Below are positions 6,303 through 59,818 of a DNA stretch of 64,000 nucleotides, piece after piece. The DNA comes from Podarcis liolepis. Taxonomy: Eukaryota. A program made the translations under genes and the position numbers. The stretch's first letter is position 1. Each line of letters starts with the position of its first letter. The stretch is from the NCBI GenBank assembly GCA_965112155.1, contig OZ218109.1, one strand, 5' to 3'. A model generated the notes under the pieces. That model was not told the DNA's origin. It worked only from the letters and a program-made list of their open reading frames with translations, and did no database searches.

Positions 6303-7912
6303 TCATAGAAAGCTTTCACAGAATCCTAAAATTGTGGATTGGAAGGGACTCAGAGGACCATCCAGTCCAACCCCCTGCAATGCAGAAATCTCAACTAAAG
6401 CATCAGTGACAGATGGCCATCCAACCTCTGCTTTAAAACCTGCAATGAAAGAAAGTCCACCACCTTCTGAAGGAGTCTGTTCCAATGTCAAACTATTGCG
6501 TGGACAGGCGGAGTCCCCAGATCCTGCATGGTTCCCCCGTCATGTGGAATAACGACTCAAGACAACGTGCTATGGGATTAAATTGGCCACAACTTTATTA
6601 AATTTCAAATGTGGGTAGACCTTGGCTCAGGCATTGGGCATCCTCCCTCCCCGGTCCCCAGCCGGGGACCTAGGGAGCATCAGGGTTATCCAGTGTGTGG
6701 GGGGGGGGGGATGGGCCGGCTCTGGAGAACATATGTTCAAGCAGAGATAGCCGCCCCCGTAACGCTGCCGCCGCAGGAGAGAGCAATGACGACCTTTCGG
6801 TGTACGACCAAAGCCTCCCTTCAGAAAACCCCTTTAACGGGGAACCCTGGTATCGCCGCCGCAAGAGGAAGATGGACGAAAGGATTCCGCCCAAGGCCTG
6901 ATACCACCAAAGTTGTGACGTTTTGCTACGGGAAAGGCGAAACCTGCCAATGCAGGGAAATTCCTTTCCGGCCCTTTAACAGCGACCTTAACGTAGCAGC
7001 GCCCGCATACCTGTGAAGAAAAGTTAACCTGCAAAACCTGTGAAGAAAAGTTAACCTGCAAAATAAGGCATTAACTGAGGGTGGGTAGGGTGGAAGAAGC
7101 TCTGGAGCCAAGTGAGGATTCCTAGGTAAGATCCTCCCTCTATTGTGTGGGCAGGTAATCCCTCCCCTACCTGGCCTGGTCTCCTTGGCAACGCTTCCCC
7201 CAGGTGGGATTGGACAACTGACTGAGGTAGGCGGAGACCTCCAGGTATCCCACCTGAGGGAAGGCAAAGCCAAGCCTATGCTGTTGGAGCCACTCCAGAT
7301 CTAGGGGCTGCACGCGTCCACGCAAAGGGCGCCCCCCGTTTTAAGCGGGGAGCGGTCATTCTTACTGTCATGAAGTTGTTCCTGACGTTTAGTCAGAATC
7401 TCCTTTCTTATAACTTGAATCCATTGGTTCAAGTGCTACCCTCCAGAGCAGGAGAAAACAAGCTTGCTCCTTCTTCCATGTGGCAGCCCTTTAGATATTT
7501 GGCAATGGCCATCATATTTCCTCTCAGTAACCTCTTTTCCAGGCTAAACATATGCAGATCCCTCAACTGTTCTTCATAAGTCTTGGTTTCCGGACCCTTG
7601 ATCATCTCGCATGCCCTCCTCTGCACATATCTCAGCCTGTTGATATCTTTCTTAAATTGTGGTGCCCAGAACTGTTCTGTGGCACCCAGGTGTAGTCTGA
7701 CCAAGGCAGAATAGAGTGGTACTATTACTTCCCTTGATCTGGACGCGATACTTATGTTGATGCAGCCTAGAATAGCATTAGTTGTTTTTTGTTTTGTTTT
7801 TTGCTGCTACTGCTGCTGCATCACACTGTTGACCCATGTTAAGCTTGTGGTCTATTAAGACCCTAGGTCCTTTTCACATGTGCTACAGGTCTCCACCATC
7901 CTATAATTGTGC
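6303..7912 (-). mobile_element. CR1 LINE 3' fragment (RT C-terminus and 3' UTR), split by element A at 6496-7357
   Basis: ORF 7429-7704 reads QFWAPQFKKDINRLRYVQRRACEMIKGPETKTYEEQLRDLHMFSLEKRLLRG, typical of the CR1 ORF2 end. 6303-6495 is the CR1 3' tail, and the two halves join as ...TGTCAAACTATTCTTACTGTC. Confidence 0.9.
6496..7357 (-). mobile_element. Element A: unclassified non-coding structured mobile element, CpG-rich and probably young
   Basis: Inserted cleanly into a CR1. Inverted repeats TTGCGTGGAC (6496-6505) and GTCCACGCAA (7316-7325) are followed by the hairpin CGCCCCCCG-TTTTAAG-CGGGGAGCG. AATAAAGTTGTGGCC lies on the minus strand at 6585-6599. It shares motifs with 45229-46024 and 50908-51719. 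Confidence 0.85.
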
Positions 7913-10715: not shown

Positions 10716-10756
10716 TGTGTGTGTGTGTTGTATCGCATGCCTCTGATCCCACAGAG

Positions 10757-10892
10757 CAGAGTTTCCCAAACTTGGGTCTCCAGCTATTTTAGAACTACAG
10801 CTCCCATCTTCCCTAGCTAGCAGGACCAGTGGTCAGGGATTATGGAAACTGTAGTCCAAAAACAGCTGGAGACCCACGTTTGGGAAACTCTG
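10757..10892. mobile_element. hAT-type palindromic MITE
   Basis: TIR CAGAGTTTCCCAAAC; 8-bp TSD CCACAGAG/CCATAGAG. Confidence 0.9.
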
Positions 10893-13239
10893 CCATAGAG
10901 CATCACTGCATCAGGCATCAACATATTTTCTGGTGGTAATAATAGGAAGGAAAGAAAGAAAATGTGAAAGAAGTCCAAACTGTGCCTTAGAGCTTGAGCA
11001 ACAGGAGCACCCCTTCTTCTCCCTGAAGCCCTGAAAAGTGTTGAACACGCACCTGCACAAACCCTCTATCTTCCATCTGGAGCAGTTGTCCACATTCAAG
11101 GACACATTGCATCCAGGCAAAACACCCAAGGAAAGCACAAACTGGGACTACTAATGGCTATGGCCCAAGGAGGAGGAGGAGGAGTGTGGCTGGGAAGGGT
11201 CTGATCTTGGGAGAGTCCTAAGAGACCCCAAAGGCCACATATGGGCTAGAGGCCTCAGGTTCCCCATGTGTACAGTAGAGTTTTGGGGTGCCTTCTGAGC
11301 AGTGAGATAGCCACTGGGCATTGCTGGGAGTGGGGAAGAATGACCCCCAAAGGCACTGTCAGTGAGTTGAGGTCCAGAGTCATACTACTACTCGATTTGG
11401 GGTGATTTACTCCCTCCACTGTAAACCCCCAATTCCCTATCTGGTGCTAGACAGGACGGTCCCCCAACTCCTTGAAGAAGTATTGAAAGGACTCAGAGAA
11501 CTACAGCAGGAGGACAGCATTAGAAAGCCCACTCTTGTGAACCTCATTCCACTCATGGTCCACAGGATCCAAACCACTGTTTTCTTAGAAATCTTACAGA
11601 GTTAGTGCTACAGGCTCTTTAATAATAGACATTATATTGAAGCGGAAATTGTAAAAAAATAGAATTTTAAAAATGGAAAAGGAATGTTGGGCAACTTTAA
11701 ATTCATCTTTCAGTTTTAAGCAGGAGGATCAGACCCTGCATATTGCTGCTCCTTCATGAGGGACGCAAAAGAACAGGATCCTCCTAGTCTTGCATGGTGC
11801 TGCTTCAGGGATCAGGAAGAAGGAAAGATAGTTATCCAGTAGGTCCATTATTTTTGCGGTTTCTGCTTCTTCTGTTTCATGCCTGCCTCGACTTCCTGCC
11901 TTTCACCCCACCCCCTGCCAGACCCAGATGGCTCTGTCCCTGAGCCAGCCAACATGCCCTTTAGCAGTCCAGAGCTGTTTCAACCAGACTTGAACAAGGC
12001 CTAGATCCCTCTAATTAGGTTCAGTTTGGCTTGGGATTTGGGCCTCAGCCGAATCCAGTGCACAGCCTATGTTCTGACATCCCAGTAAGATGGGGTGGGG
12101 AACCTGTAGCCCACCACACATCACTGGACTCTTCATTCCCATCACTTCATTCTGGGATGATGCGGAAGTTGTAGTCCAACATTAGTGTGGGCGCAAGGCA
12201 CTGAACTTGCCACAAATGATCACTTACACATTTGCCAAGGACCAGTTCTAAACCGGACAGTTTTCCAGGAATGTGACACCACTTCTTCTCATGGCATTAG
12301 CTACTGATTGCAACATGTCATCACAACAACGTGCTTTCTGGTTTGGCATAAAGGCGATGAAGGCAATTACATTTTCAAGATGCTGGCATTTTTAGGTAAA
12401 ACACCACCAACACCAAGTGAAGAAGGTAATCAGGATTCTTGTTATAATGTAAAGTGGAAATATAAAGATGGGCTGATTATTTTGTGTTAGGACCAAGCGT
12501 TTCATTCTATCACCTGTCTTTTTTCATCACTTCCACTGTGATATTCTGGAATGGAGTGGCTGACATGTAATAGAAAGCTATGGAGGGAGCATTAATGCAT
12601 TCTTTAGCTCAGGCAGTCCATGTTGTCTCAGAAGTAAATGAAAAGTCTCCCAATCTTTTCATTTACTTTGGAGACAACATGTTCTGAGAGGAAAGATTTT
12701 TGCCAGCTGTTTTAGTTTTAAATTACAGTGCCATGATTGGTTTCATTTCTAGGTCACCCATAGCAACCATAACTTGAAAGCATGAGATCAGTTCTGCTTT
12801 CATTTAGAAATCTTCCCAGTTTCCGCTTCAAACACTGTTTTATAAAGCTTCCCTCTCTGTAGTTCCTGCTTTGCAGTGTTTAGTCATCCGCTTTCCTCCT
12901 TGTATTTTAATAGTCTGTTGAAATTGTGGCTTGTCACAGTGACCTAAAGAAAATATAATACTTGACATCAGGAAATGTATAGCTGTGGGAAATTAAGTAG
13001 TTGGGAAGTTGGCTTGGACCGTTATGCTACATCTGGGCAATCAATGATGAAGAAACATTTTTATTTGTTTGAATTTCCCAAATTCCTGCTGTTGTTATTT
13101 TTGTACACTTTTATGCTGCTGTTTTCCTGACTTTATGTTTTATTTTTTACGGCATTTGTTTTCTTTGCGGCATGCTGCTTTGCGATTTTTTAAAAAATAT
13201 TAAGCAGATTATAGATACAATAAATTATATAAATATATA

Positions 13240-19450: not shown

Positions 19451-20899
19451 AAGCCAAATAAGGAATTATATTATTGTAGCTGTTGGAATCTCTCTTCAAC
19501 AAATTGTATGGTCATATCTAAGACAGCATAGTGGAAACCTACTTTGAATTTGGGTTGTTTTTGTTTTGGATCCTGGCCTACAGTTCAGCTGTGCATCATT
19601 ATGTCCTTGATTTGAAACAAGCATTAAAGTAGATCAGAATGGACTTTGCAATCTTAGCATTCAGTCCACAAGGGGCAGAGTGGCTTCTGAATAAGGAGGG
19701 GGAAGTGCTATAAGTATGAGGATTTTTATAAAAGCGAAGATCTTCCCTTCCCATGCTCTGAGCAAATGATTTCTTTGTTTCCGAGACTACCAAGATCAGT
19801 GGAATGATACACTTCTTATCTTGTAATGAATTCTAAGGAAGAACAGTCTCTGGCACCTAAGGCAGACTTACCACTGTCAACATAGACTGCTTCTTTTGAC
19901 AAGAACAAAATGATGAGCTCTTAAATGCAGAACTGTTCTCACTGAGGAACCTTTTTATGCATACTTAGACAACCTTCAAGGGCAGGAGGGGAGCCATATA
20001 CCATAGCTAACCAGCGATACTGACATCTGTCTTTCACAGAGAGCCAAGGGAGTCTTGAAAAGATCACAGTTGGCAAAAGTAACTGATTAAGATAAATCTA
20101 TAAATTATATTGCTCGGTGTGTAAGCTTTCCTAAGATATACATCGCACACCATGTGCTTGGGCAAGAAAATTAAAATAGCATGGGAAAGAAAGGAAATGT
20201 GTACCTTTTAGGGAGGAACCCCCAGGTCTAAAACAAGACAAAGCATAGCTGTTTGATTAAAACGGAACAGTTTCCTTTGTAATAACATTTTTGGCAATTA
20301 AAGTAAAATATATGTGGTGCATATTTATGATGGAATGGGTCATTTCACTATTCATAATCTGGTGGTCACCTTAAGTTTCAACATACTGGTACCGCCATGA
20401 ATTTTTCACTTTGCAATAGAGTAGAGATGAGGAATCTTTGGCCCTCCAGATGTTGTTGGACTACAGCTCCCATTATTCCTGATCACTGGCCATGCTGACT
20501 GGGGCTGATGGGAGTCAGTGTCCAACCGCATATGGGGGCCTGCATTTACCTGACACAGAGAAATGCAAGGACTTTAAGAAAGGACAGGATAGAACACAGA
20601 CTATTGATGTTATAAGCCTTGGCACATAGGATCTAGTGATGACTGATACCCTCATTTGTTCCTTTGCCTTTTTAGCTTCACCTGCTGACACATATATTTT
20701 ATCTGGAAACAAGAAAAGGGTTTTGAATTTCTGGGAGCATGCCTCTGCAAAATCAACCCTCAAATCTATATGTGAAGCAGCTGTATTCAGACCAGGGCTG
20801 ACTCTGGTGACACACACATCTGTGGTAGGTATGGGTACATCTATCAACTTCAGTTTCTTGCCATTTCCAATTCTACTGAGCTTATTTCTCCACATTTGC

Positions 20900-30902: not shown

Positions 30903-31038
30903 CAGTGTTCCCCAACCTTGGGCCTCCAGCTGTTTTTGGACTACAACTCCCATCATCCTTGACCACTGGTCTTGCTAGCGAGGGATGATGGGAGTTGTAG
31001 TCCAAAAACAGCTGGAGGCCCAAGGTTGGGGAACACTG
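30903..31038. mobile_element. Young hAT-type palindromic MITE
   Basis: Long, near-perfect TIRs starting CAGTGTTCCCCAACCTTGGG; perfect 8-bp TSD CTTTAGGA at 30895-30902 and 31039-31046. Confidence 0.95.
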
Positions 31039-35875: not shown

Positions 35876-36043
35876 GAGGGCCATAGCTCAATGATAGAGA
35901 ATCTGCCTCGCACACAGAAGTTCCCAGGTTCAATTCCTGGCATCTCTAGTTAGGGCTGAGAGACCCCATTTGAAATCCTGCCAATCAGTGCAGACAATAC
36001 TGAGCTAGATGGACCAATGGCCTGATGCGGTATAAGGAAGCTT
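35876..36043 (+). mobile_element. Squam2-like tRNA-derived SINE; its tail resumes at 36646
   Basis: TAGCTCAATGAT A-box, GGTTCAATTCC B-box and CR1-like tail GAGCTAGATGGACCAATGG...TATAAGGAAGCTT|CCTATATTC. Confidence 0.8.
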
Positions 36044-42800: not shown

Positions 42801-45228
42801 GATGAGACCAGAAGCCCATCTTATCCAGCATCCTGTTTTGTACAGTGGCCCATCACATTCAAGGAGGCCTACCAGCTGGGTGTCAGCAGTTCCTTTGGCT
42901 CATCTAGTCCAACATTCTGTTCTCACAGTGACCAACCAGAGACCTGTGAGAAGTCCACAAGCAAGACCTGACTGCAACACCACTCAATCTCCCCTCCAGC
43001 AGTTTTCAGTGGCTGTTATTCACAAACACACTGTCTCCAAGAGTGGAGGTATCAGGGTTAGTAGCCATCAAGAAATAGCACTCCAACTCCAAACCAAAAC
43101 ATTGTAATCTGACGTGAGCTTTACTCTACAGAGCAAGGAAAATTGAAATCAAACTTCCTGCACCTCCAGTTGAACCTTGAGCCCAAGCTGTTTGCAGCCT
43201 AATTATCCTAAAGGAATATTTCCTTTTAATTTTAAGCAGCTGCTCCTCTCCTATTTCGTCCCCAATGAAACATGAGGGTTTTATGCAAAACCTCCACTGA
43301 GCATGTGCAAGTGTGCGTTTTCTTTCTCCGCATATGAATTTCTTCTAATATCTGTAACTGGCCACAGTGGAATCCCTGCACATCTTTCTCCCGGACCTGT
43401 TTAATGAAATCTGCAGTTCCCCACTCAGATTCATTTTGGATACCCCCTATGTTTCTTCTTTAAATACCAGTGATCTAGACACTAAATGTGCAGAAGTGGT
43501 CTCCCATAACGTTAATGCATATCTCTATTCCTTTAGTTATCACATGGGTGGCCTCATGAGTGGCATAATATGTTGGAGCACTCTCTCTCTCCTGCTGTCC
43601 TGATGAAAGTATTCGGCTCACAATGAAAATTGAGGCAATAGGCAACATTACAGCATGCTTGGCTCAGCTTGTTGGCAGTGACGATGAAGCATTCATTGCC
43701 ACTATGGAACAGATGAAATCAAAAGCACAGGCTATTAAACTATACACTACCATTGGGGGCTGTAAGTCTTTTCTGCAAATGACACCTTTGTTATTTTCCT
43801 AAACGAGTTCATCAACGTATAGCATTCGAATGCACTAAATCACAGAGGCATTTAGGAATGGATAAACAGATGGACAAATAACAGATTTATTTTATTTTCT
43901 TCCCCTTCTCCTTTAAATATCTTCCTTCCTCCTACTCCACAAAAGGGACATGATCCAATTCAAGAGAATCATAGTATTTCTTGTTGGTGATACTTCTCAT
44001 CATATATATATTTCTGTTTAGTTTTGTTTTGTGTTTTGCATCGCCCCAATTTATCACTATTGTTTGACAATAGTATGTTCCAGCTAATCATTCTGTCGCT
44101 TGTCTTTCACTTTCACCCATCCATCTGCAGATTTTAAAAGTACACATTTCCTCTGGTATTCTTCCCTCTGATTTTTAAAATACTGTTTTTCTACAAATTT
44201 CCTGACAATGCTTAAAAAAAAGAACATCTGAATTTCTGTCACTCAGCATGATCTTTATTTTCTTGCTCTCCACTATTATTTGTTTCAAATGACTAACATT
44301 TAGGGTGAAATACTGAACTAATCACTATCCAAAAGCTGTAATAAACTCTCCAGTGGAAGTGAGTCCAGTTGTTGCCTGGTCAGCGGAAGGGTGCCTTTCT
44401 TACATCTGCTGCAGTTAGCCTTAAAACGGCAGCTTGCCATTTGCAGAACATCCTCTGTAGGTATTTTTTGCATTGCTCTTTGTTAATCAAGCCCAGTTCC
44501 ATTGCTGTAGCTTACCAAAGCTGCTGACCTGTTCTTTTCCCCCATAGTTAATTTTCCAGCATCAGTTACACCAATAAATCTTAACTAATGTACATTTAAT
44601 AGAATATATTGCATGAAAGATGGGGAAGGAAAGAAGGCACTTTAGGGGATTCTTGGTGTAATTAAAGGCCTTTTAAAGAATTAATTGAGGAGCTAATTTA
44701 GGGAGGAATGTTCAGATGAAAAGGGTCTTGAATCCGTAATTTTGGATGCAGCATTATGCCTGAATTATGGTGGTATTAGCAGTGAACAGGGCACAGCACT
44801 GACTTTGCTAATCTCCCACCTAGTGTTTATTCCTGTACTTAAATCACCCTAGTGATGAGAATCAATGCACAAGCACCAAATGTAAGCCAGTAGTGTGTTT
44901 TAGCCATTGTGTGATACTTCTGCAAGTGACCAGAAGCCATTACGCAATATCTCATGTGTATATAATGGAGAGATAGCCTTAGGCTGTTCATCAGACAGAG
45001 GAGCTGATCGTCATTCTATACTTGCCCCTTTTGGAAAAGCAAGCAACCAACAGCATGGCTAGACATGCAGGCATCTCCCATAGAGGGCTGAGACAGCAGA
45101 GAAGTACACAGCCTCCAAACAATCAAAGACAAAGCATCATGAAATAAATCAAGACAAAAAAGTGTTTTGCTGCAAGTGTGTGTTTCCATGCAGGAGCTAT
45201 ACAGTAGGAGATCACACAGCCTGTAAGA

Positions 45229-46024
45229 AAGCGTGTCCTCCCTAAAAAAGGGCATGTGTTGTGGTGAGACCTGGAGACTGACCTCCTGATTGTGGGTGGG
45301 TATATTGGACAGCCACAACACCCGACTGGTAGGTCCCTTGTTGCTGGGTTTAATCTGGCCAATGGGGAGCTGTTTAAATGGACTGAGGGACCTATATATA
45401 CCTATGCATGTGACCCAGAGCTTCCTCTTTTGGCTTGTGCATCGGAACACCCGCCCACCTCTCCCTATATTTAGGGCTTGTTGCGCTTGACCTTGCTATG
45501 CCGTCATGTGTCATCTGTCGTTGGGACAGGGGCACAGCAGGAATTTTCCCCACTTGGCTGATTGGTTGTTGCCATTTGGGTTTCGCCTGCTGCGTAGCAA
45601 ATCGTCACAACTTGTAAGGTTGTGGATAGGCACTGGTTCAGGTGATAGGGATGGGAGAACGGTCTCACCATCCCTATGTGAAGGGTATTCCGTTAAAGGA
45701 ATCCAGGGACTCAACTTGGTTTGGTCAACCCTTGAGAGGGGGTTGTGCCCGTGCCTGAGTCCAGGAGAGCATCTGGGGAGCGTACATAGTCCATTCCTGG
45801 GCTTTCCACCTACCTCAGGTGTTCACCCTTGGCTGACCTATGATAGAGCTCTGGGTCAGCACTACCTGCAAGGGTGCAGGGAGCTAGTCGAACCAGAGCC
45901 TATGCAACCACTCACTTTCTGTAATCAATAAAGTTGAGGCCTAAATTCTGCCAAAAACCAAAACTAAAATTTGAGTCAAATGTGTTTTTATTTAGGGGGG
46001 AAGTCTGTGGGTCTGAACACACAA
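45229..46024 (+). mobile_element. Element B: unclassified non-coding structured mobile element (A/B/C family)
   Basis: 5' hairpin GCGTGTCCT...AGGGCATGT, imperfect inverted repeats TTGTGGTGAGACC / GGTCTGAACACACAA and AATAAAGTTGAGGCC at 45927-45941. The block 45425-45640 aligns with 51098-51310. Confidence 0.8.
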
Positions 46025-47659
46025 ATAAATGCCTTTTGAAAGGGGAAATCATTGCAAGGGGAGTTGTGTTGCTGTCCCTGATTATGTCACAAACAATATC
46101 CAATCAGTGCTTTTGCCATTCAGTCTACCGGATTCCATTCAGCATTCACAAGAGCAACAAATGTGATGCAGTGGACTTACAGGGTACTTTATGCAATATG
46201 AACAAAGTACCGAGTTTTGGATATTCAAAAAATGTGATGCCCAACCCTCAACAAAAAGGCAGGATGTGTGGAGTGCATGCGACATACGTCATGCGGATGT
46301 GCAGGTTGGGAGGTTGTTGTGTCTGGGAGTGACCTCTGCACAGCTCCCTGGGTGGTCCAACCGGGCTCAGTGTTAGGAGGGGGCTGTGGAGTGACACAGC
46401 GATGTCCCAACTCTTGCACCACTTCCTACAGCACTACAAAGAGCCATGTTTGGGCATGCAGTCTGGGAGACACACAGCACAGTGGAGTAAATAATCCATT
46501 TCCCAAAGTTATTTGTCTTGACTCTTCTTTGGCATATTACTAGCTTCTGTATCAGGTGCTCTGGAACTTTGGGAGCTGAGACTTTCATAAGGGATAAGTC
46601 CTGTAAGTACAAACATGACAACATTGGGATGACAGCGAGTACCCTTGCAAACAGCATCATAATGATCAACCACAGAGACTTAAGTGTGAAGATCTCGGTT
46701 GCTATGAATAGATGTTCTTCTGCATTTCTCCACAAATTATGAAGAGTTGAAATGGCAACTTCTCAGCAGTACATTCACCCTGGAAGTAGAATATTTATAA
46801 GGCAGCTGTGCTCTCTAGCTAACCAAGAACATTATGTCTGGAAACATCTGGTTCAGAGCTACACTTGAGGGATGACCCGGGAAGATTTCATTGTAGACAA
46901 ACTTTTATATTTGCAATAAAATATATTTGAACAGCATAGCCCAAACACTGATAATCTATGATCTCACTCCACTGTTTTTGCCACCGATCAAGGGGTTTAG
47001 CTGGGTAGCTAATTATGAGTTTCTTGCAAAGTCTAATCCATCCTCAGAACAGATGCAATTCATGTGCATTGCTTATCTACTTTCCTGATTGCAACATTTA
47101 ATATTGCACAGCAACATGTAATAATTGGTAGCTGCCAGTGGATGCATACTCCATGATGTTCATTAGATTACAGCATGTATTGCAGGCAATGTGTTAGGAT
47201 GGTTGAACAATGGATGAAAACCACCATTTCCAGAAAGGTATGTTAAAGTAAAGTCTTCTGTAATCCATAGTGCATTGTAAAATTGCATGACAAAAACACA
47301 GATGAAAAGTGAAATAACAGAATTTGACATATCCTGGCAGAGCCACTGGTTCCTGATGACACACTCTTTCTTCCATTTAGATGCTGACAGTATCTCAACA
47401 GAAATCTATTTGACAATAATGCCCTACAGAAAACTTAACTATGTAAACACTATAAAAAAATGCAACTATCCAAAACCGTCTGAGATGTCTTAACCTGCAT
47501 TTATCTGGCTCACAGCAAAAAATAAATAAAAAATGGATAAACCACCCTCCGTCTATGGGCTTTGACTAAGATTTATCTGAAATCATTGGCAACCACAGTG
47601 AAAGCCCACATGATATTTTGTATCACTTTGGTTGACTTCATTATTCATACATACGGTAC

Positions 47660-47852: not shown

Positions 47853-50282
47853 CAACAATATTGTGCTAACACACAATTTGTATGATTTTTGTATGGCTTG
47901 GGAAATACAAGTTTTTCTTTTTCCAAATATGGAGTACCAACCATTGTATGCTTCTCCTTTCAAGCTGCCCTGGGTGCAACCTGAAACCTGCAAAGCATCT
48001 AACAGGCCCTGTACAATCTCCTCTGCCATTTTATCAGAAAACTTCGATAAAATGCAAATTCCAACCATAGCTTCAGCATTAGCCAATCCCCACTCCCTGT
48101 TGTTTTTTTTAACCATCTATCCTAATGAAGAGTTCTGAATTCTTGCACTCTATTTTGTCAATATTGTGGTTGGCATAAAAAAAGTATTGCCCTAATGTGA
48201 ATTTTGGGGAGGGGTCCCCCCCTTAATGGGCTATCATGACTACCTTTGCTTGTTGCTTCTTTTTTTAGTTAAAGGTCAGTGTCTCCTTTCCTAGAGATTT
48301 AAAGTACCTGCTACACTTCACTGAATGTTACTGAATGGAGTAGGTAAAAATAGAAAAAAAGAATTTTAGCATGCATGATTTAAGAAAGGGACCATTTAGG
48401 TATCCTGTTACTTCCAAGATGTTTGGCAATTAGCAATTCAATTCAGGATTTTGCAAAATTATTTTTATCTTGATATGCTCAAGGAGTAGGACTGTATCAG
48501 AATGCATTCATTGCAACAGCTGGACATGTTATCAACACTCCCCCCTTGTTATTCTGAATGAAAAATTGGAAAGAGTGCTTCCATTTATATCCCATAAGTA
48601 ATGTTGCATATAGAAAGACACACACGCGCACACACCCCGCAATCTTTGCAACTCACCCACATCTAAGCTAAAAATACTCTGAAGTCATGCTGCTCTTTTA
48701 AATCATACTGCGAAACTGGATGACCTCCTATGGAGATTTCTCTTTAACACAAGTAATTATAGTCTTCCAGCTGCCCTTTGACTCTCAGTGGACCAAGGGC
48801 AGTCCTTCTTGGAAATGAGCTTAATTAATTCTCCGCAATTGGTATATATTCTTTCAGCCATGAGGTGGCAGCTTGTTTCCACAGGAATTTACTCCTGAGC
48901 TTTGAGTTGATCTGCTTCTATTGCCCAGGTTGCTCCTGTTTCAGAAGCCTGAGCCCACTGAGCCACACGGGCGAAATGTGGCAAGAGGCAGGAGCTGCAA
49001 CAAAATGTTGTAGTGGACAATATGTTCCTGTTTGGGGTTCCAGCCATTCCATTCCATTCCCCTCTCCACGTTTTTCCATTTCCCCCATCACAACAGCCAA
49101 TCAGCATTCCATGCGCACTGAGCTTGCTCAGTACCCATGAGAATGTTTGGAGAGATGGCTGTATCCCCATAGCCCAAGGATACATCCCCCTTGTATGTGG
49201 GTGATGCTCTTTTGGCTCTCCACATGGATCAGCCATAAGAGAACTGAGGGGGGAAAACAGCATATATGAGTTTGACAACATGTGAGCTTTCTTATTGGAA
49301 ACTTACACAAATGTCTAACAATATAAGAAGTGAAGTTTACAGAGGCATGGTCCGTATTGCTGAATATCCTGTATACAGGACGACCCGATACAGTTATATG
49401 GGGTGGGGGAATGGAAGCAGCTAATAACACTCTCACCAGCAGGAAATGAGAACCTTCATGGATGAGGAGCAAGCAGATGGCCCAGTTGAAGGAAGCCCTC
49501 AATGATGAAGCAGTTCATACACAATCACAGCAGCATAGTTTCAAGCATCACACAGGCTTTGCTTTGTGTAGGGAAACCTGTCAATGTCAATTTGTCGTTT
49601 CTCCATGGTTAACGTCTCCACATTTCAGCATCACTTCAATAATGTCTTTTCAAAGTCTGCAAGGAAATTTGTGAGCATTTTGGTACAAAAATGCGTAGCT
49701 TTGTATGCAACCTTGCCCAATATGCACATTTTTGCAAAGCCATTTTCCTGAATGTAAAGCATGTTGGTATGTTATCTTCCCTAACATATGCATTTGTAGA
49801 CACAGTTTATCTCACAATATGCATCTTTGTACGTATTACTTGGTACAGATTAATTGCCGAATCTAAAGAAGAGCACATTTCAAAGGATGTCTGTGTTTCG
49901 GTTCATGTATTGATTCAGGAAGTGCAAATTAACCTTTAATGTGAACTGCATCAAATTTTCCTCCCGTCCCTGGCTGTGTTGCTGGTGTTTTGCATTAAGG
50001 ATCAACAACATGGTTTAGGTCAACAGTAAGCTGGGAAGGAGAGACCCTGTTGCAGCAGACCAATAAAGATCAACAGCTTGCCTTGCTTTCTTGGTAGCCT
50101 CCATTTGTATCTCTAACAGATAGTGGACCTCAAGGGATCCTAAGGACTCAGCTACATTGGCAGCCAAAAAGCCCTTTATATGTGTTGTTTATGCATTCTA
50201 ACACTGTGGCACCAGATGGCACTGTGGAGTTCTGTTTTTTGCTAACCCGATTTCTCATACAAGGTTTGTGATGCATTTAACT

Positions 50283-50418
50283 CGGGCTTCCTCAAACTCG
50301 GCCCTCCAGATGTTTTGAGACTACAGTTCCCATCATCCCTGACCACTGGTCCTGCTAGCTAGGGATCATGGGAGTTGTAGGCCAAAAACATCTGGAGGGC
50401 AGAGTTTGAGGAAGCCTG
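50283..50418. mobile_element. hAT-type palindromic MITE
   Basis: TIR CGGGCTTCCTCAAACTC/GAGTTTGAGGAAGCCTG with an ACTACAGTTCCCATCATCC core; the TSD is degenerate. Confidence 0.85.
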
Positions 50419-50711
50419 GTTTAAACAAAACACTTCTTTGATTTGTCTAGATCCAGCCTACGTCCACCAGCTTCGACTGAACACAGTGTAAATTCCCCTT
50501 TTAGAAATACACATGAAGGTTGGAAGAGGAGTGGGTGGCATTCACCAGAAATGGGGAGGGGGACTAAGACCTGCGAGACCAGGGTTCAAATTTCCACTCA
50601 ACCACAAAGTTTACTGGGTGACCTTGGGCCAGTCACTGCTTCTCAGCCTAGCCTACCTCACAGAGTTGTTGTGGGGAATAAATGGTGGAGAGAGTGGACA
50701 CCAGGTAAAGC

Positions 50712-50893
50712 ATAGATTGGTGCCCAAATTGTTAGACCTGGGACTTCCACCATGTTTGTGCAGTGTTGAGCATGTAGTTTTTATGTAGTTTTATGTAGTT
50801 TTGTGGTAGTTTTATGTAGTTTTTATGTAGTTTTATGTAGTTTTTCAATTTCATTGTTCCACAAGGGACAATGACAATAAAGATATCGTATAT
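50712..50893 (+). mobile_element. Internally deleted Rex1/Babar LINE fragment with an (ATGTAGTTTT)n minisatellite
   Basis: The peptide LVPKLLDLGLPPCLC (Rex1-type RT motif KL..LGL...LC) is joined to the Rex1-like 3' end CAATTTCATTG...ACAATGACAATAAAG. Tandem repeat at 50771-50845. Confidence 0.6.
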
Positions 50894-50907
50894 CGGGGGG
50901 GGGGGGG

Positions 50908-51719
50908 AGCGTGTTCTCTTTCATAGAGAGCACGTGTTGCGGTGGGGTCTGACAGGCCACCCCACTGTTGCTGGGCGGGTTAGTATGGATGACCATCCAC
51001 AGTGATTGGACGGTTGGGTTACTGGGCAAATTTTGGTGTTGCCATTTAGGGGGAGGGACCAAAGGTTATAAAATCAAGTCACGCAGCACTGACTGGGCTC
51101 TTTTGCTGCGTGCATCGGATCACCCACCCACCCTCCCTCATCTAGGGCTATTGCGTTGACCTTGCTATGCCTGTCATGGGGTCGTCTGCTTTTGGGGCAG
51201 GGGCCTGGTAGGAATTTTGTCCATATGGCTGATTGGCTGGTGCTATTTGGTTTTTGCCTACTGCGTAGCAAATCGCCACAACTTGTAAGGTTGCGGTTAG
51301 GCATTGGTTAAAAAATTGGTTGGTGGAGGGGTAAGGACTGGCGGTGCCTGCCCCTCCAATGCTGCTGCAGCAAGGGAATTCCATTAAAGGAATCCAGGGG
51401 CTTGCCATTCTTTCGTCCATACCCCTGAATGGGGCTTAGGGCCACGCAAGCCCCTGGGAGCATGAAGGGGGGGGTGAGGGTCTGGTGCCGGCTCCATGCT
51501 CTCCCCAATATTGTTTTCCCTTACTGGCTTTCGCTGGAATCCGGAAGTCAGTTCTGTCCCTGGGCGTGGGGACAGATAGTTGGAACCAATGCCTAAACAA
51601 TCACTCACATTTATGTATTTTAATAAAGTTGTGGCCAAAGTTATGCCAAAAACCTTAAACAAAAATTATATGTGAATTGTGAATTATTTAGGGGTGGCTT
51701 GGGGGACCTCAACACGCAA
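50908..51719 (+). mobile_element. Element C: unclassified non-coding structured mobile element (A/B/C family)
   Basis: 5' hairpin GCGTGTTCTCT-TTCAT-AGAGAGCACGT, imperfect inverted repeats TTGCGGTGGGGTC / GACCTCAACACGCAA, TATAAAA at 51067-51073 and AATAAAGTTGTGGCC at 51622-51636. Confidence 0.85.
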
Positions 51720-53557
51720 ACCACCTTGAGTTCTTTGAAGAAAAAGAAGGGATATAGAAGCAATGAATAAATAAAAATACTGATCAGGATTTTAGTAGTA
51801 CATTTAGCCTAGGAAACTTCACTTAAAAACAAACAAACCAGGAATTTTTATGATGGCTAAATAGCAGCTAAGCTTCCTGGAGTGGGTACTTGCCTGATCC
51901 TCAGTTAGGTGGTGGCTGTAATCAGACTTCTGCTCCCATGCAGAATAATTAACGGAACAGAGAGCCAAAAAAAAAAAAAAAAAAAAGAAAAGAAAGGAAA
52001 ATGTCCCCAGCCCTATTAAATTTCCACTGAATTAGCCCCTCAGAAAGGAAGCTGTCTTGCAAAATGACTGCCTTTTACAGATTAAAAAAAGCAACTGGCT
52101 ATGTCAAGGACAGTGGAAAGGAAGCAGGGTTCAGTAACAAGAATTCCAACTCAAAAGGGGTTATCGTGTGCCAGTTCTCTGATGGAGAATTTATCCACGC
52201 AAAGGTCAGGCACTCATTAAACCTTATCTGATGCCAAAGTTATATATTATGGTTTATTGCCTCGAGTACCAATTAATAAAGAATTAAAGAAATGAAGAAA
52301 CCAGTGATTCATACCTTTTGTGTGGGGGGGGAAGCTCATGGTTCAGCATAATGCTAAAATATTAATAGTAATTTTAGTCGTGTAGTATTTTATTAGGCAC
52401 TTAACTCTGTAGGTTTTATCGAAAGATATATGGGATTCATTTTTAACAAAATGCAGAAATTTGGGGGAAGGGAGGTACATTGACTCAAAATCTAATAAGA
52501 GGAGATTCCAGAGATATTTTGAAAGGGGGGGAGCTTAAACATTACCATTGATTATTAATAAAGAATTACTTAATAATAATAATGGGCTTAAGAAGGGACC
52601 GTTACAAAGGGCTGGAAAATTCCACAATGATTTTTCCACAGTGTTCTTAGAAGGAAGCTCACAGCTCTAGGAGTCATATACACTGGTACTACAAAAAAAC
52701 TATTGTATACCACATATCTGGTGTAAGGTAATTTACTGTACAACTTTCAAACATTTCTGCTTTGCTTTCAGGTGATTTCAAGTGATAGCAAAGTCCCGTC
52801 TGTGGTGACTGATCTGTAAAAGCTCATTTCCATGGGCAAGTAATAACTTGCCATTGCAGCCACAAAGTGATAAACCTGCGTGTGTGAAAGCTCACCTTTA
52901 TAGACACTCATATTCTTCTCGGATGTTCGCTGTCAATAGCATGTGCTGCAAGCCACAACCTTACAGTCTGAACTACTGTCTGGTAAAATATATATATATT
53001 GTAGTGCTAGCAGGCACTAGATGGTTGGCTTTATTTTAGTATTTGCTAAGCTTCCCCCCTGAGTCCAGTTGGTTTGTGGCTGTGGAAGGCTCTATGGGGG
53101 AGGGGAATTGGGGGTCGAGGAGGGTCATTGGGGGGGGGAGTGAGAAATGTTCCTATTCTCATCTAATGGAATGTTAGAGGGTATGTTACCATAATGCCAC
53201 AGTTGGTGGTAGGAGAAGGTAGAAGCAACACCAGAGCAGGGAGCAGCCAATGTCTGATTTTGTCAGATAGAGAGACCAGCATTGGGAAGTCCATAAAAGT
53301 GCGTATTTCAAACGCTGGCTGTGTTCTGATTTGAATTGTTTTGGAAAATTTGAATTCTGTAGGCTCGCCTTTAAATGCAAAGTAAATTGAATTTCTCCCC
53401 CCATGGCTAGAAGTGGATCAGTAAGGGCTTCCGACAACCAATTATTTGAGAATAGCAATAACTAAAAGGCTTCCCCTCCCTTGAAATTAGGCTGCTGAAA
53501 TGACCAACATTGGAGGGGGACCAGGAGGGAGAAAATAGGAGGACTGTGAATCAGTAC

Positions 53558-57234: not shown

Positions 57235-58082
57235 GTTGTTGTTGTTCAGTCGTTTAGTCGTGTCCGACTCTTCGTGACCCCATGGACCAGAGAACGCCAG
57301 GCACTCCTGTCTTCCACTGCCTACCGCAGTTTGGTCAAACTCAGGCTGGTAGCTTCGAGAACACTGTCCAACCATCTCGTCCTCTGTCGTCCCCTTCTCC
57401 TTGTGCCCTCCATCTTTCCCAACATCAGGGTCTTTTGCAGGGAGTCTTATCTTCTCATGAGGTGGCCAAAGTATTGGAGCCTCAGCTTCAGGATCTGTCC
57501 TTCCAGTGAGCACTCAGGGCTGATTTCCTTAAGAATGGATAGGTTTGATCTTCTTGCAGTCCATGGGACTCTCAAGAGTCTCTTCCATCACCATAATTCA
57601 AAAGCATCAATTCTTCAGCGATCGGCCTTCTTTATGGTCCAGCTCTCACTTCCATACATCACTACTGGGGAAACCATGGCTTTAACTATATAGGTCTTTG
57701 TTGGCAAGGTGATGTCTCTGCTTTTTAAGATGCTGTCTAGGTTTGTCATTGCTTTTCTCCCAAGAAGCAGGGGTCTTTTAATTTCGTGACTGCTGTCACC
57801 ATCTGCAGTGATCATGGAGCCCAAGAAAGTAAAATCTCTCATTGCCTCCATTTCTTCCCCTTCTATTTGCCAGGAGGTGATGGGCCCAGTGGCCATGATC
57901 TTAGTTTTTTTGATGTTGAGCTTCAGACCATATTTTGCGCTTTCCTCTTTCACCCTCATTAAAAGGTTCTTTAATTCCTCCTCACTTTCTGCCATCAAGG
58001 TTGTGTCATCTGCATATCTGAGGTTGTTGATATTTCTTCTGGCAATCTTAATTCCGGCTTGGGATTCATCCAGCCCAGCCTT
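57235..58082 (-). mobile_element. 5'-truncated RTE-BovB LINE (RT domain to 3' end)
   Basis: ORF 57615-58094 reads AGIKIARRNINNLRYADDTTLMAESEEELKNLLMRVKEESAKYGLKLNIKKTKIM (YADD RT motif). The 3' end is GGGGTCACGAAGAGTCGGACACGACT followed by (CAA)n. Confidence 0.97.
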
Positions 58083-58202
58083 AAAAGCAGTCATTAAATA
58101 TATAAATTAGATAAAGGATATTGCTGTCAAAGTCATATCATTTAAATATTTATATTATTGTTACTAAGGGCATCAGGTCTACTTCCTCTGGAAGTGAGTA
58201 GT

Positions 58203-59101: not shown

Positions 59102-59818
59102 NNNNNNNNNNNNNNNNNNNNNNNNNNNNNNNNNNNNNNNNNNNNNNNNNNNNNNNNNNNNNNNNNNNNNNNNNNNNNNNNNNNNNNNNNNNNNNNNNNN
59201 NNNNNNNNNNNNNNNNNNNNNNNNNNNNNNNNNNNNNNNNNNNNNNNNNNNNNNNNNNNNNNNNNNNNNNNNNNNNNNNNNNNNNNNNNNNNNNNNNNNN
59301 NNNNNNNNNNNNNNNNNNNNNNNNNNNNNNNNNNNNNNNNNNNNNNNNNNNNNNNNNNNNNNNNNNNNNNNNNNNNNNNNNNNNNNNNNNNNNNNNNNNN
59401 NNNNNNNNNNNNNNNNNNNNNNNNNNNNNNNNNNNNNNNNNNNNNNNNNNNNNNNNNNNNNNNNNNNNNNNNNNNNNNNNNNNNNNNNNNNNNNNNNNNN
59501 NNNNNNNNNNNNNNNNNNNNNNNNNNNNNNNNNNNNNNNNNNNNNNNNNNNNNNNNNNNNNNNNNNNNNNNNNNNNNNNNNNNNNNNNNNNNNNNNNNNN
59601 NNNNNNNNNNNNNNNNNNNNNNNNNNNNNNNNNNNNNNNNNNNNNNNNNNNNNNNNNNNNNNNNNNNNNNNNNNNNNNNNNNNNNNNNNNNNNNNNNNNN
59701 NNNNNNNNNNNNNNNNNNNNNNNNNNNNNNNNNNNNNNNNNNNNNNNNNNNNNNNNNNNNNNNNNNNNNNNNNNNNNNNNNNNNNNNNNNNNNNNNNNNN
59801 NNNNNNNNNNNNNNNNNN
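59102..59818. other. Assembly gap (717 N)
   Basis: Run of N. Confidence 1.

Follow-up and report, generated by a model that had tools for sequence, protein, structure and literature searches.

Three homologous non-coding insertions with NTT ends, a terminal hairpin and a conserved RNA domain: probable solo repeats of a Ngaro-like retrotransposon

The window, the whole 64-kb stretch of DNA analysed here, is repeat-rich animal DNA with a GC content of ~41%, which we take to come from a lizard; that origin and the naming of the host repeats as CR1 and SINE are assumptions that follow the preliminary description. Within it lie three insertions of 800-870 bp, termed A, B and C, which together constitute the sequence evidence (Table 1). 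A blastn search with A as the query identified two weak minus-strand relatives, which were then read and aligned as B and C. Pairwise identity was 67.5% for A-B, 66.1% for A-C and 74.5% for B-C, and the global alignment scores of -55, -50 and 420 compare with maxima of -167 to -183 in 30 shuffles of each pair. Judged by these alignments, the three are homologues, and form a real and well-bounded insertion family. Neither blastn nor a three-copy nhmmer profile (best other match E 4) found a fourth copy or fragment in the window, and all 24 matches of an Rfam scan of the window to E 5 fell outside the elements.

Table 1. Coordinates of the three elements and their features (positions in the window)
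Feature	Position	Strand	Remark
Element A	6495..7360	- (AATAAA, predicted transcript sense)	includes ATT at both ends
Element B	45228..46025	+	includes trinucleotide at both ends
Element C, core and left trinucleotide	50909..51720	+	core 50909-51717
A left trinucleotide ATT	6495..6497	+	exact copy at other end
A right trinucleotide ATT	7358..7360	+	exact copy at other end
B trinucleotides TTT	46025-46023 and 45230-45228	-	both ends
C left trinucleotide TTT	51720-51718	-	element end
C right trinucleotide TTT, displaced	50707..50709	-	SINE-like host resumes after
Later 196-bp insert in C hairpin end	50712..50907	+	flanked GCT/GCT, 3-bp duplication
A terminal arm of asymmetric inverted repeat	6496..6535	+	first 10 bp perfect
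A inner arm of asymmetric inverted repeat	7286..7325	+	complement of left terminus
A terminal hairpin	7330..7354	-	9-bp stem, one G-U pair on minus strand, 7-nt loop
B terminal hairpin	45231-45257	+	fold
C terminal hairpin	50909-50935	+	fold
A AATAAA	6594..6599	-	~100 nt from element end, same place in 3/3
B CCAAT; TATA; AATAAA	45359; 45393-45400; 45927-45932	+	signals
C TATAAA; AATAAA	51067; 51622-51627	+	signals
A helix H1	6963-6969 with 6931-6937 (span 6931..6969)	-	both partners differ among A, B, C in 4/7 pairs
A helix H2	6910-6919 with 6586-6595 (span 6586..6919)	-	covers last two A's of AATAAA
A helix H3	6890-6901 with 6627-6638	-	enclosed by H2
A hairpin H4	6828-6843	-	enclosed by H2
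A perfect 27-bp tandem duplication	7009..7062	+	private to A

The elements are non-coding, with no reading frame common to the three. A Pfam scan of 26 of the 39 window open reading frames (ORFs), each of at least 110 amino acids, identified one LINE-type reverse transcriptase (RT) and no tyrosine recombinase (YR) or RepHel; the other 13 ORFs comprised six over an assembly gap and seven short ones. No RepHel-coding partner with matching ends was present within the window. Protein searches with a stop-free frame of A (6582-7013) returned a single match among 13 candidates, the 54% identical P0001, which is a 192-aa ORF on an 880-bp record and lacks a Pfam domain. P0001 is a spurious ORF related to A, in which the segment carrying hairpin H4 is present twice; hence relatives with internal duplications exist elsewhere, and the existence of A relatives elsewhere is all that this match shows. 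None of 281 longer candidates matched, nor did any of 28 for a second A frame (6929-7300), and a B frame (45491-45928) had one weak match (E 8.7e-4 over 29 aa). These searches with stop-free frames revealed no domain-bearing relative, and so no gene model fusing the repeat to an RT, YR or RepHel. Two features are private to A: the 27-bp tandem duplication, the minus strand of which reads like a splice acceptor, and a strong hairpin at 7184-7274, where B and C carry their putative promoter region.

The boundaries of the elements are marked by a trinucleotide. The longest exact repeat flanking each core was 3 nt in all three cases (ATT, TTT and TTT), such that NTT is found once in the empty site and at both ends of inserted A, B and C. 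The chance of a 3-nt match between two random window positions is 1.8%, with the B boundary having been set by homology, and the base before TT was equal at both ends in every copy, including one at a site that is not T-rich. Removing A, with one ATT kept, gave a gap-free alignment across the junction with a paralogue at 16659-16571, the support being this single paralogue, which is ~70% identical and mismatched at three bases directly at the junction. This agrees with the earlier claim that the host is restored, although the ATT then regarded as a microhomology is an exact 3-nt repeat present at both ends. The site closes only if the hairpin extension is removed with the rest of A. Excision of C, which had also been said to restore its SINE host, did not do so by itself; once the later 196-bp insert was excised too, the empty site matched a SINE-like paralogue (25141-24969) through the junction, with a one-base gap nearby in a G run. 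This insert, which is younger than C, resembles a LINE 3' fragment with an AATAAA and a 10-nt microsatellite. For the empty site of B there was no convincing paralogue within the window, and its boundaries therefore follow from homology to A and C. Between them the cores end in GC...TC, GT...GC and GC...GC, and C has 7-bp inverted words on either side of the trinucleotide (7/7), B a less perfect pair (5/7) and A no terminal inverted repeat. The host word TTCTTAC is common to the hairpin ends of A (7358-7365, plus strand) and B (45230-45223, minus strand), and absent from that of C; TT is continued in this way at 11 of its 12,099 occurrences in the window (~0.005 when corrected for six comparisons), and the shared word may reflect a target preference.

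Inside these boundaries, the left terminus of A is repeated in inverted orientation near the other end, followed by a hairpin. The repeat is perfect over 10 bp (6496-6505 and 7316-7325) and continues imperfectly over 40 bp at 73% complementarity, with the inner copy ending 35 nt from the right end of A, and 30-35 nt inside across the copies. Both the 10-bp repeat and the 9-bp stem (7330-7338 with 7346-7354, one mismatch) were thus as first reported, with the inner arm reaching 7286 rather than ~7298. In B and C the inverted repeat spans 28-29 nt and is interrupted. Its score was matched or beaten in 3, 25 and 10 of 5,116 background windows, element ends included, for A, B and C respectively. 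Conservation is good over the first 13 nt of the left end, and the hairpin stem stops 0-3 nt from the core end. As RNA of the AATAAA strand, the terminal hairpin was significant in all three copies, with 7, 3 and 0 of 300 shuffles folding as well in A, B and C (A has z -2.3, with 5-7/300 shuffles as good); the B hairpin fails on the opposite strand (55/300), and as DNA on both strands. A window-wide scan for the whole layout, using rules drawn from A-C after the fact, gave the top score to A (38), followed by C (26) and, in a tie for third place, B (24), with the best of 12 shuffled windows reaching 30. Since B and C lie inside the shuffled range, their support is their position at homologous ends, and only A stands out on layout. 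They do share the layout of A, as had been proposed, in the sense of being homologues with like arrangements, but with interrupted repeats and unexceptional scores.

Joining the two ends had been expected to give an inverted repeat, a hairpin and a second inverted repeat. The ends do pair up, but are better seen as one rod, formed in register by the hairpin, the inverted repeats and two junction bases out of three. The RNA z scores of this rod on the AATAAA strand are -6.7, -5.7 and -8.5 in A, B and C, with none of 200 shuffles as good in any copy, as RNA or as DNA. The opposite strand folds more weakly in B (-30.9 vs -53.5 kcal/mol) and C (-45.3 vs -67.7 kcal/mol), whereas A has no strand preference (RNA -73.8 vs -71.0; DNA -35.0 vs -36.8). 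Scored without strand bias, the rod contains 18 G-U pairs against 7 A-C mismatches on the AATAAA strand (p 0.043, with B and C not independent). The variable base of NTT stands opposite a mismatch in all three rods, placing the crossover trinucleotide off the rod axis. This geometry, in which one sequence complements both termini about a 3-bp junction, is shared with the internal complementary region (ICR) of DIRS elements (PMC3266345), although the rod is smaller and lies against the terminus. By analogy, the inner arm of A may work like the left ICR of DIRS. The likeness to an att site suggested by the preliminary description is a loose one, resting on the 7-bp inverted pair of C and B, which A lacks; canonical recombinase sites have 11-13-bp arms around a 6-8-bp spacer (PMC3212892), which the joined ends do not fit. 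The circular intermediate it envisaged gains support by inference, as a 3-nt repeat at both ends is the expected residue of recombination between a circle junction and a matching target (PMC3266345), to which the register-matched rod can be added; no circle was observed.

In the interior, each of the three copies has its AATAAA 101-107 nt short of the end of the aligned region, and a TATA box is present at ~position 165 of the AATAAA strand in B and C; the TATA/AATAAA layout reported earlier therefore applies in full to two copies, A being without the TATA box. Folding the three sequences with RNAalifold yielded four helices in which 98 of 102 cells are paired (96%) and 10 of 34 pairs have changed on both sides, a result reached in none of 500 shuffles and by none of the slid controls, all of which scored lower; the helices were chosen from the fold of the same sequences, and the covariation count leans in their favour. 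In helix H2, the final two A's of AATAAA and the 8 nt that follow are paired with a segment ~320 nt upstream; this helix is nearly invariant, without covariation of its own. Across the four internal helices G-U pairs outnumber A-C mismatches by 4 to 0 on the AATAAA strand, a count that, like the covariation, comes from three copies of which B and C are closer kin, and so is not made of independent events. Over alignment columns 400-850, z was -9.3 on the AATAAA strand vs -6.7 on the other (0/60 shuffles for both). Identity across the three copies is ~0.6 in the internal blocks vs 0.26-0.29 in the end columns, the latter being lowered by the ends of A lying partly out of register. Selection appears to act on the RNA of the AATAAA strand. 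Two ribozyme candidates were set aside: the hammerhead core (CTGANGA or TTGANGA) is absent from both strands of all three copies, and the ribozyme-bearing Penelope and retrozyme readings were consequently dropped, while a conserved block that by eye had seemed HDV-like is helix H1.

The class of these elements, which the preliminary description had left between a retroelement and a Helentron, leans towards a tyrosine-recombinase retroelement, because the 5' hairpin of Helitron2 is missing, the terminal hairpin is flush, wobble pairs fall on the AATAAA strand and the internal RNA helices are conserved; the end layout nevertheless also resembles that of Helitron2. With a probability of about 0.65, the three insertions represent solo A-B repeats left by a Ngaro-like (split-direct-repeat) tyrosine-recombinase retrotransposon. 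Zebrafish Ngaro-type library entries have a short hairpin first and then an inverted copy of the far end, and their solo units are catalogued; part of the weight given to the Ngaro-like reading comes from this end layout. Elements of this group encode gag, RT/RNaseH and YR, to which SGNH is added in amphibians. The full-length parent would have the structure A1-ORFs-B1-A2-B2, and would be transcribed on the AATAAA strand from the CCAAT/TATA in the A repeat, ending after the AATAAA in the B repeat. The B-to-A junction, carried inside the RNA as B1-A2, would fold into the rod, from which reverse transcription would lead to a DNA circle with an NTT junction. The tyrosine recombinase would then cross the trinucleotide of the circle junction with a host NTT of the same sequence, so that the insertion acquires NTT on each side without any longer duplication. 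In a last step, the coding part would be lost by recombination of A1 with A2 and a solo A-B repeat would remain, unless the A-B unit was moved in trans. The pre-existence of the joined ends as transcribed B1-A2 would, we infer, explain the RNA-strand bias of the rod, which in a solo copy can arise only once the ends are joined. In this model, the helix over the poly(A) signal would likely favour the B2 signal over that of B1, or bring the RNA ends together.

Several published observations accord with such a parent. The three insertions have no integrase-type duplication of 4-6 bp, and the duplicated length is 3 bp in each; NTT stands at both ends of 23 of 28 annotated DIRS1-like elements, mostly as ATT, with recombination at a 3-bp junction (PMC3266345), through which DIRS-type insertion is also described (PMC7192593), and Xenopus DIRS ends are TTT (PMC9210276). 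Solo AB repeats have been reported for Ngaro (PMC8547959), SIRE corresponds to A2-B2 of VIPER (PMC6681497), and DIRS-order elements are abundant in the Anolis lizard, with 775 copies in 42 families (PMC3266345). The Ngaro-like group occurs in vertebrates. As a solo AB, a split-repeat element would leave behind a non-coding unit that has recombinase-type ends and, on one strand, a promoter in the A repeat and a poly(A) signal in the B repeat; here AATAAA is seen in three copies and TATA in two. With the solo AB units of Cafeteria Ngaro (PMC8547959) and Xenopus DIRS-53_XT (PMC9210276), and with SIRE/VIPER (PMC6681497), the elements share a non-coding unit that resembles a solo LTR, has putative promoter and poly(A) signals and is free of a 4-6-bp target site duplication (TSD). 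They differ in length, 800-870 bp being more than twice the 388 bp of the Xenopus Ngaro A+B (236+152 bp; PMC9210276), with the TATE A+B at 675 bp, and in the junction rod and AATAAA helix, which the accessible portions of PMC8547959, PMC9210276 and PMC6681497 do not describe for Ngaro or VIPER. Against the Ngaro-like reading, neither the 26 scanned ORFs nor the protein searches revealed a coding sequence or parent for the elements, and a solo copy does not show where the A repeat gives way to the B repeat. Documentation of the NTT rule comes from DIRS-like elements and concerns their coding strand, while here NTT is opposite the AATAAA strand, and the accessible literature yielded no Ngaro end sequences. 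Element A has neither the TATA box nor the strand preference of the rod, and the end layout also fits published Helitron2 elements (PMC3627910).

A doubtful extension is that the 0.8-kb unit is itself mobile, as an RNA-borne bridge between DIRS and Ngaro, in which a miniature ICR would splint the ends, the covarying RNA domain would gate polyadenylation, and a borrowed tyrosine recombinase would insert the product at preferred sites. Were this true, such a mobile, self-splinting unit would offer DIRS-order retrotransposition a minimal substrate for its circle-forming step, which is still unsolved. Circle formation in this order is still a model, and the circle junction of DIRS-1 could not be amplified (PMC7192593).

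It is unlikely that the elements are instead non-autonomous Helentrons or Helitron2 elements of the HINE/DINE type, moved as single-stranded DNA by a rolling-circle RepHel and inserted at TT. Their ends are what attracts this explanation, with a terminal repeat 0-2 nt from one end, its partner ~30 nt inside the other, compared with ~20-30 nt in Helitron2, before a hairpin, TT flanks and no coding sequence, an arrangement of asymmetric inverted repeats shared with DINE-1, HINE and FoHeli (PMC3627910, PMC4067079, PMC5148889). Compensatory changes are likewise seen in Helitron2 repeats (PMC3627910), Helitron2 circles exist (PMC5148889), and the hairpins fold about equally on both strands as DNA. 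However, where Helitron2 has a 5' terminal hairpin or palindromic subTIR, no copy has a significant 5' hairpin (z +0.9 to -1.6 on both strands with both energy sets), 29-250 of 300 shuffles of the first 40 nt folding as well under the same conditions; as some Helitron2 members are without one of the hairpins (PMC5148889), this absence only lowers the probability of the Helitron2 reading. The hairpin stem is 0-3 nt from the core end, vs 8-35 nt in mite HINEs (PMC4067079), the repeats are 30-40 bp and interrupted vs 8-15 bp, and the third base, before TT, is matched at both ends of every copy, including the one at a site that is not T-rich. Furthermore, it is the strand ending 3' in the hairpin that bears the A-C mismatches, and conservation is highest in internal helices associated with an AATAAA on the other strand. 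The literature searched (titles and abstract openings) contained no work on lizard Helentrons.

Improbable, too, is a self-contained non-autonomous mini-DIRS, in which the inner arm, an AAN word and the first hairpin strand would form a miniature ICR splinting the cDNA ends, so that the 0.8-kb unit would circularise and be inserted in trans without ever having been a split repeat. The sequence by the hairpin end is an in-register complement of the joined termini, as in the DIRS ICR, and the 30-40-bp inner arm is of the same size as the Anolis left ICR of 39-40 bp (PMC3266345). With AcDIRS1/2 of Anolis (PMC3266345) and with DIRS-1, whose proteins act in trans (PMC7192593), the elements also share the hallmark NTT, present singly in the target and on either side of the insertion, and an inverted repeat with a right extension of ~26-30 nt. 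Yet DIRS1-like elements have inverted terminal repeats (ITRs) of 66-316 bp, whereas the longest inverted repeat here is 40 bp at 73%; no separate right ITR follows the ICR-like part, the right half of which is only 11-12 nt. Their separate ICR of 85-130 bp lies upstream of the right ITR (PMC3266345), in contrast to the complement of ~45-55 nt that here abuts the terminus as a hairpin. They encode gag, RT/RH/MT and YR, unlike these non-coding units, whose putative promoter and poly(A) signals lie on the strand opposite the DIRS NTT convention. At 66-75% identity, the copies in the window give no sign of a burst of identical short elements. Cryptons resemble the elements as tyrosine-recombinase elements with short direct repeats at their ends and a proposed circle, but differ in having repeats of 4-6 bp and no terminal inverted repeats, as against 3 bp with poly(A) and RNA-structure signals (PMC3212892).

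An ordinary solo LTR (ERV/Gypsy), or a DNA transposon with a 3-bp TSD and ends like those of Harbinger, CACTA or Troyka, is very improbable. The order of CCAAT, TATA and AATAAA is LTR-like, there are TG...CA inverted ends inside A (6497-7324) and formally a 3-bp duplication, and C has a perfect 7-bp terminal inverted repeat, found at 5/7 in B. Nonetheless, among 110 TG...CA boundary pairs lying no more than 45 nt from the ends, not one had an exact 4-6-bp TSD, the combination that the preliminary description had named as the mark of solo LTRs, the empty site closes only with the hairpin extension removed, and A has no terminal inverted repeat; the LTR reading is thereby largely refuted. A, B and C do not have the ends of CACTA or Harbinger elements. 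Troyka requires CG...CG ends, found in none of the three cores, and is not reported from land animals (PMC12440569).

If the Ngaro-like reading is correct, these are solo repeats of a known group of retrotransposons, and the useful part is their anatomy. The rod and the helices around the poly(A) signal, kept by compensatory change at 66-75% identity, point to cis-acting RNA elements, and it is the covarying RNA domain and the junction rod that may interest specialists. Such retroelement remnants can imitate the asymmetric repeat plus hairpin by which non-autonomous Helentrons are recognised. On this reading, lizard repeat libraries probably list the elements already, labelled as DIRS or Ngaro. 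The literature search, which covered mainly open-access papers, turned up neither an account of the present lizard elements nor a rod described for a Ngaro junction, which is weak evidence of novelty; a full-text search with five short motifs returned only unrelated papers.

Elsewhere in the window, a 163-aa stop-free frame at 57618-58106 (minus strand) contains an RT domain (PF00078, E 2.3e-11), and presumably belongs to an RTE/BovB LINE fragment. An N run at 59102-59818 is an assembly gap, which explains the six overlapping apparent ORFs and the low GC content there. A tRNA-like match at 35877-35948 (plus strand) exceeded the Rfam gathering score (39.5 bits) without being called by ARAGORN, and is likely a SINE head or pseudogene. 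Finally, a palindromic, MITE-like family (30903-31038, 10756-10893, 50276-50425 and 20428-20563), with arms of 56-65 nt and a spacer of 20-24 nt, matches Rfam mir-5408 below its gathering score, a similarity suggesting that this miRNA family may derive from the palindromic repeat.
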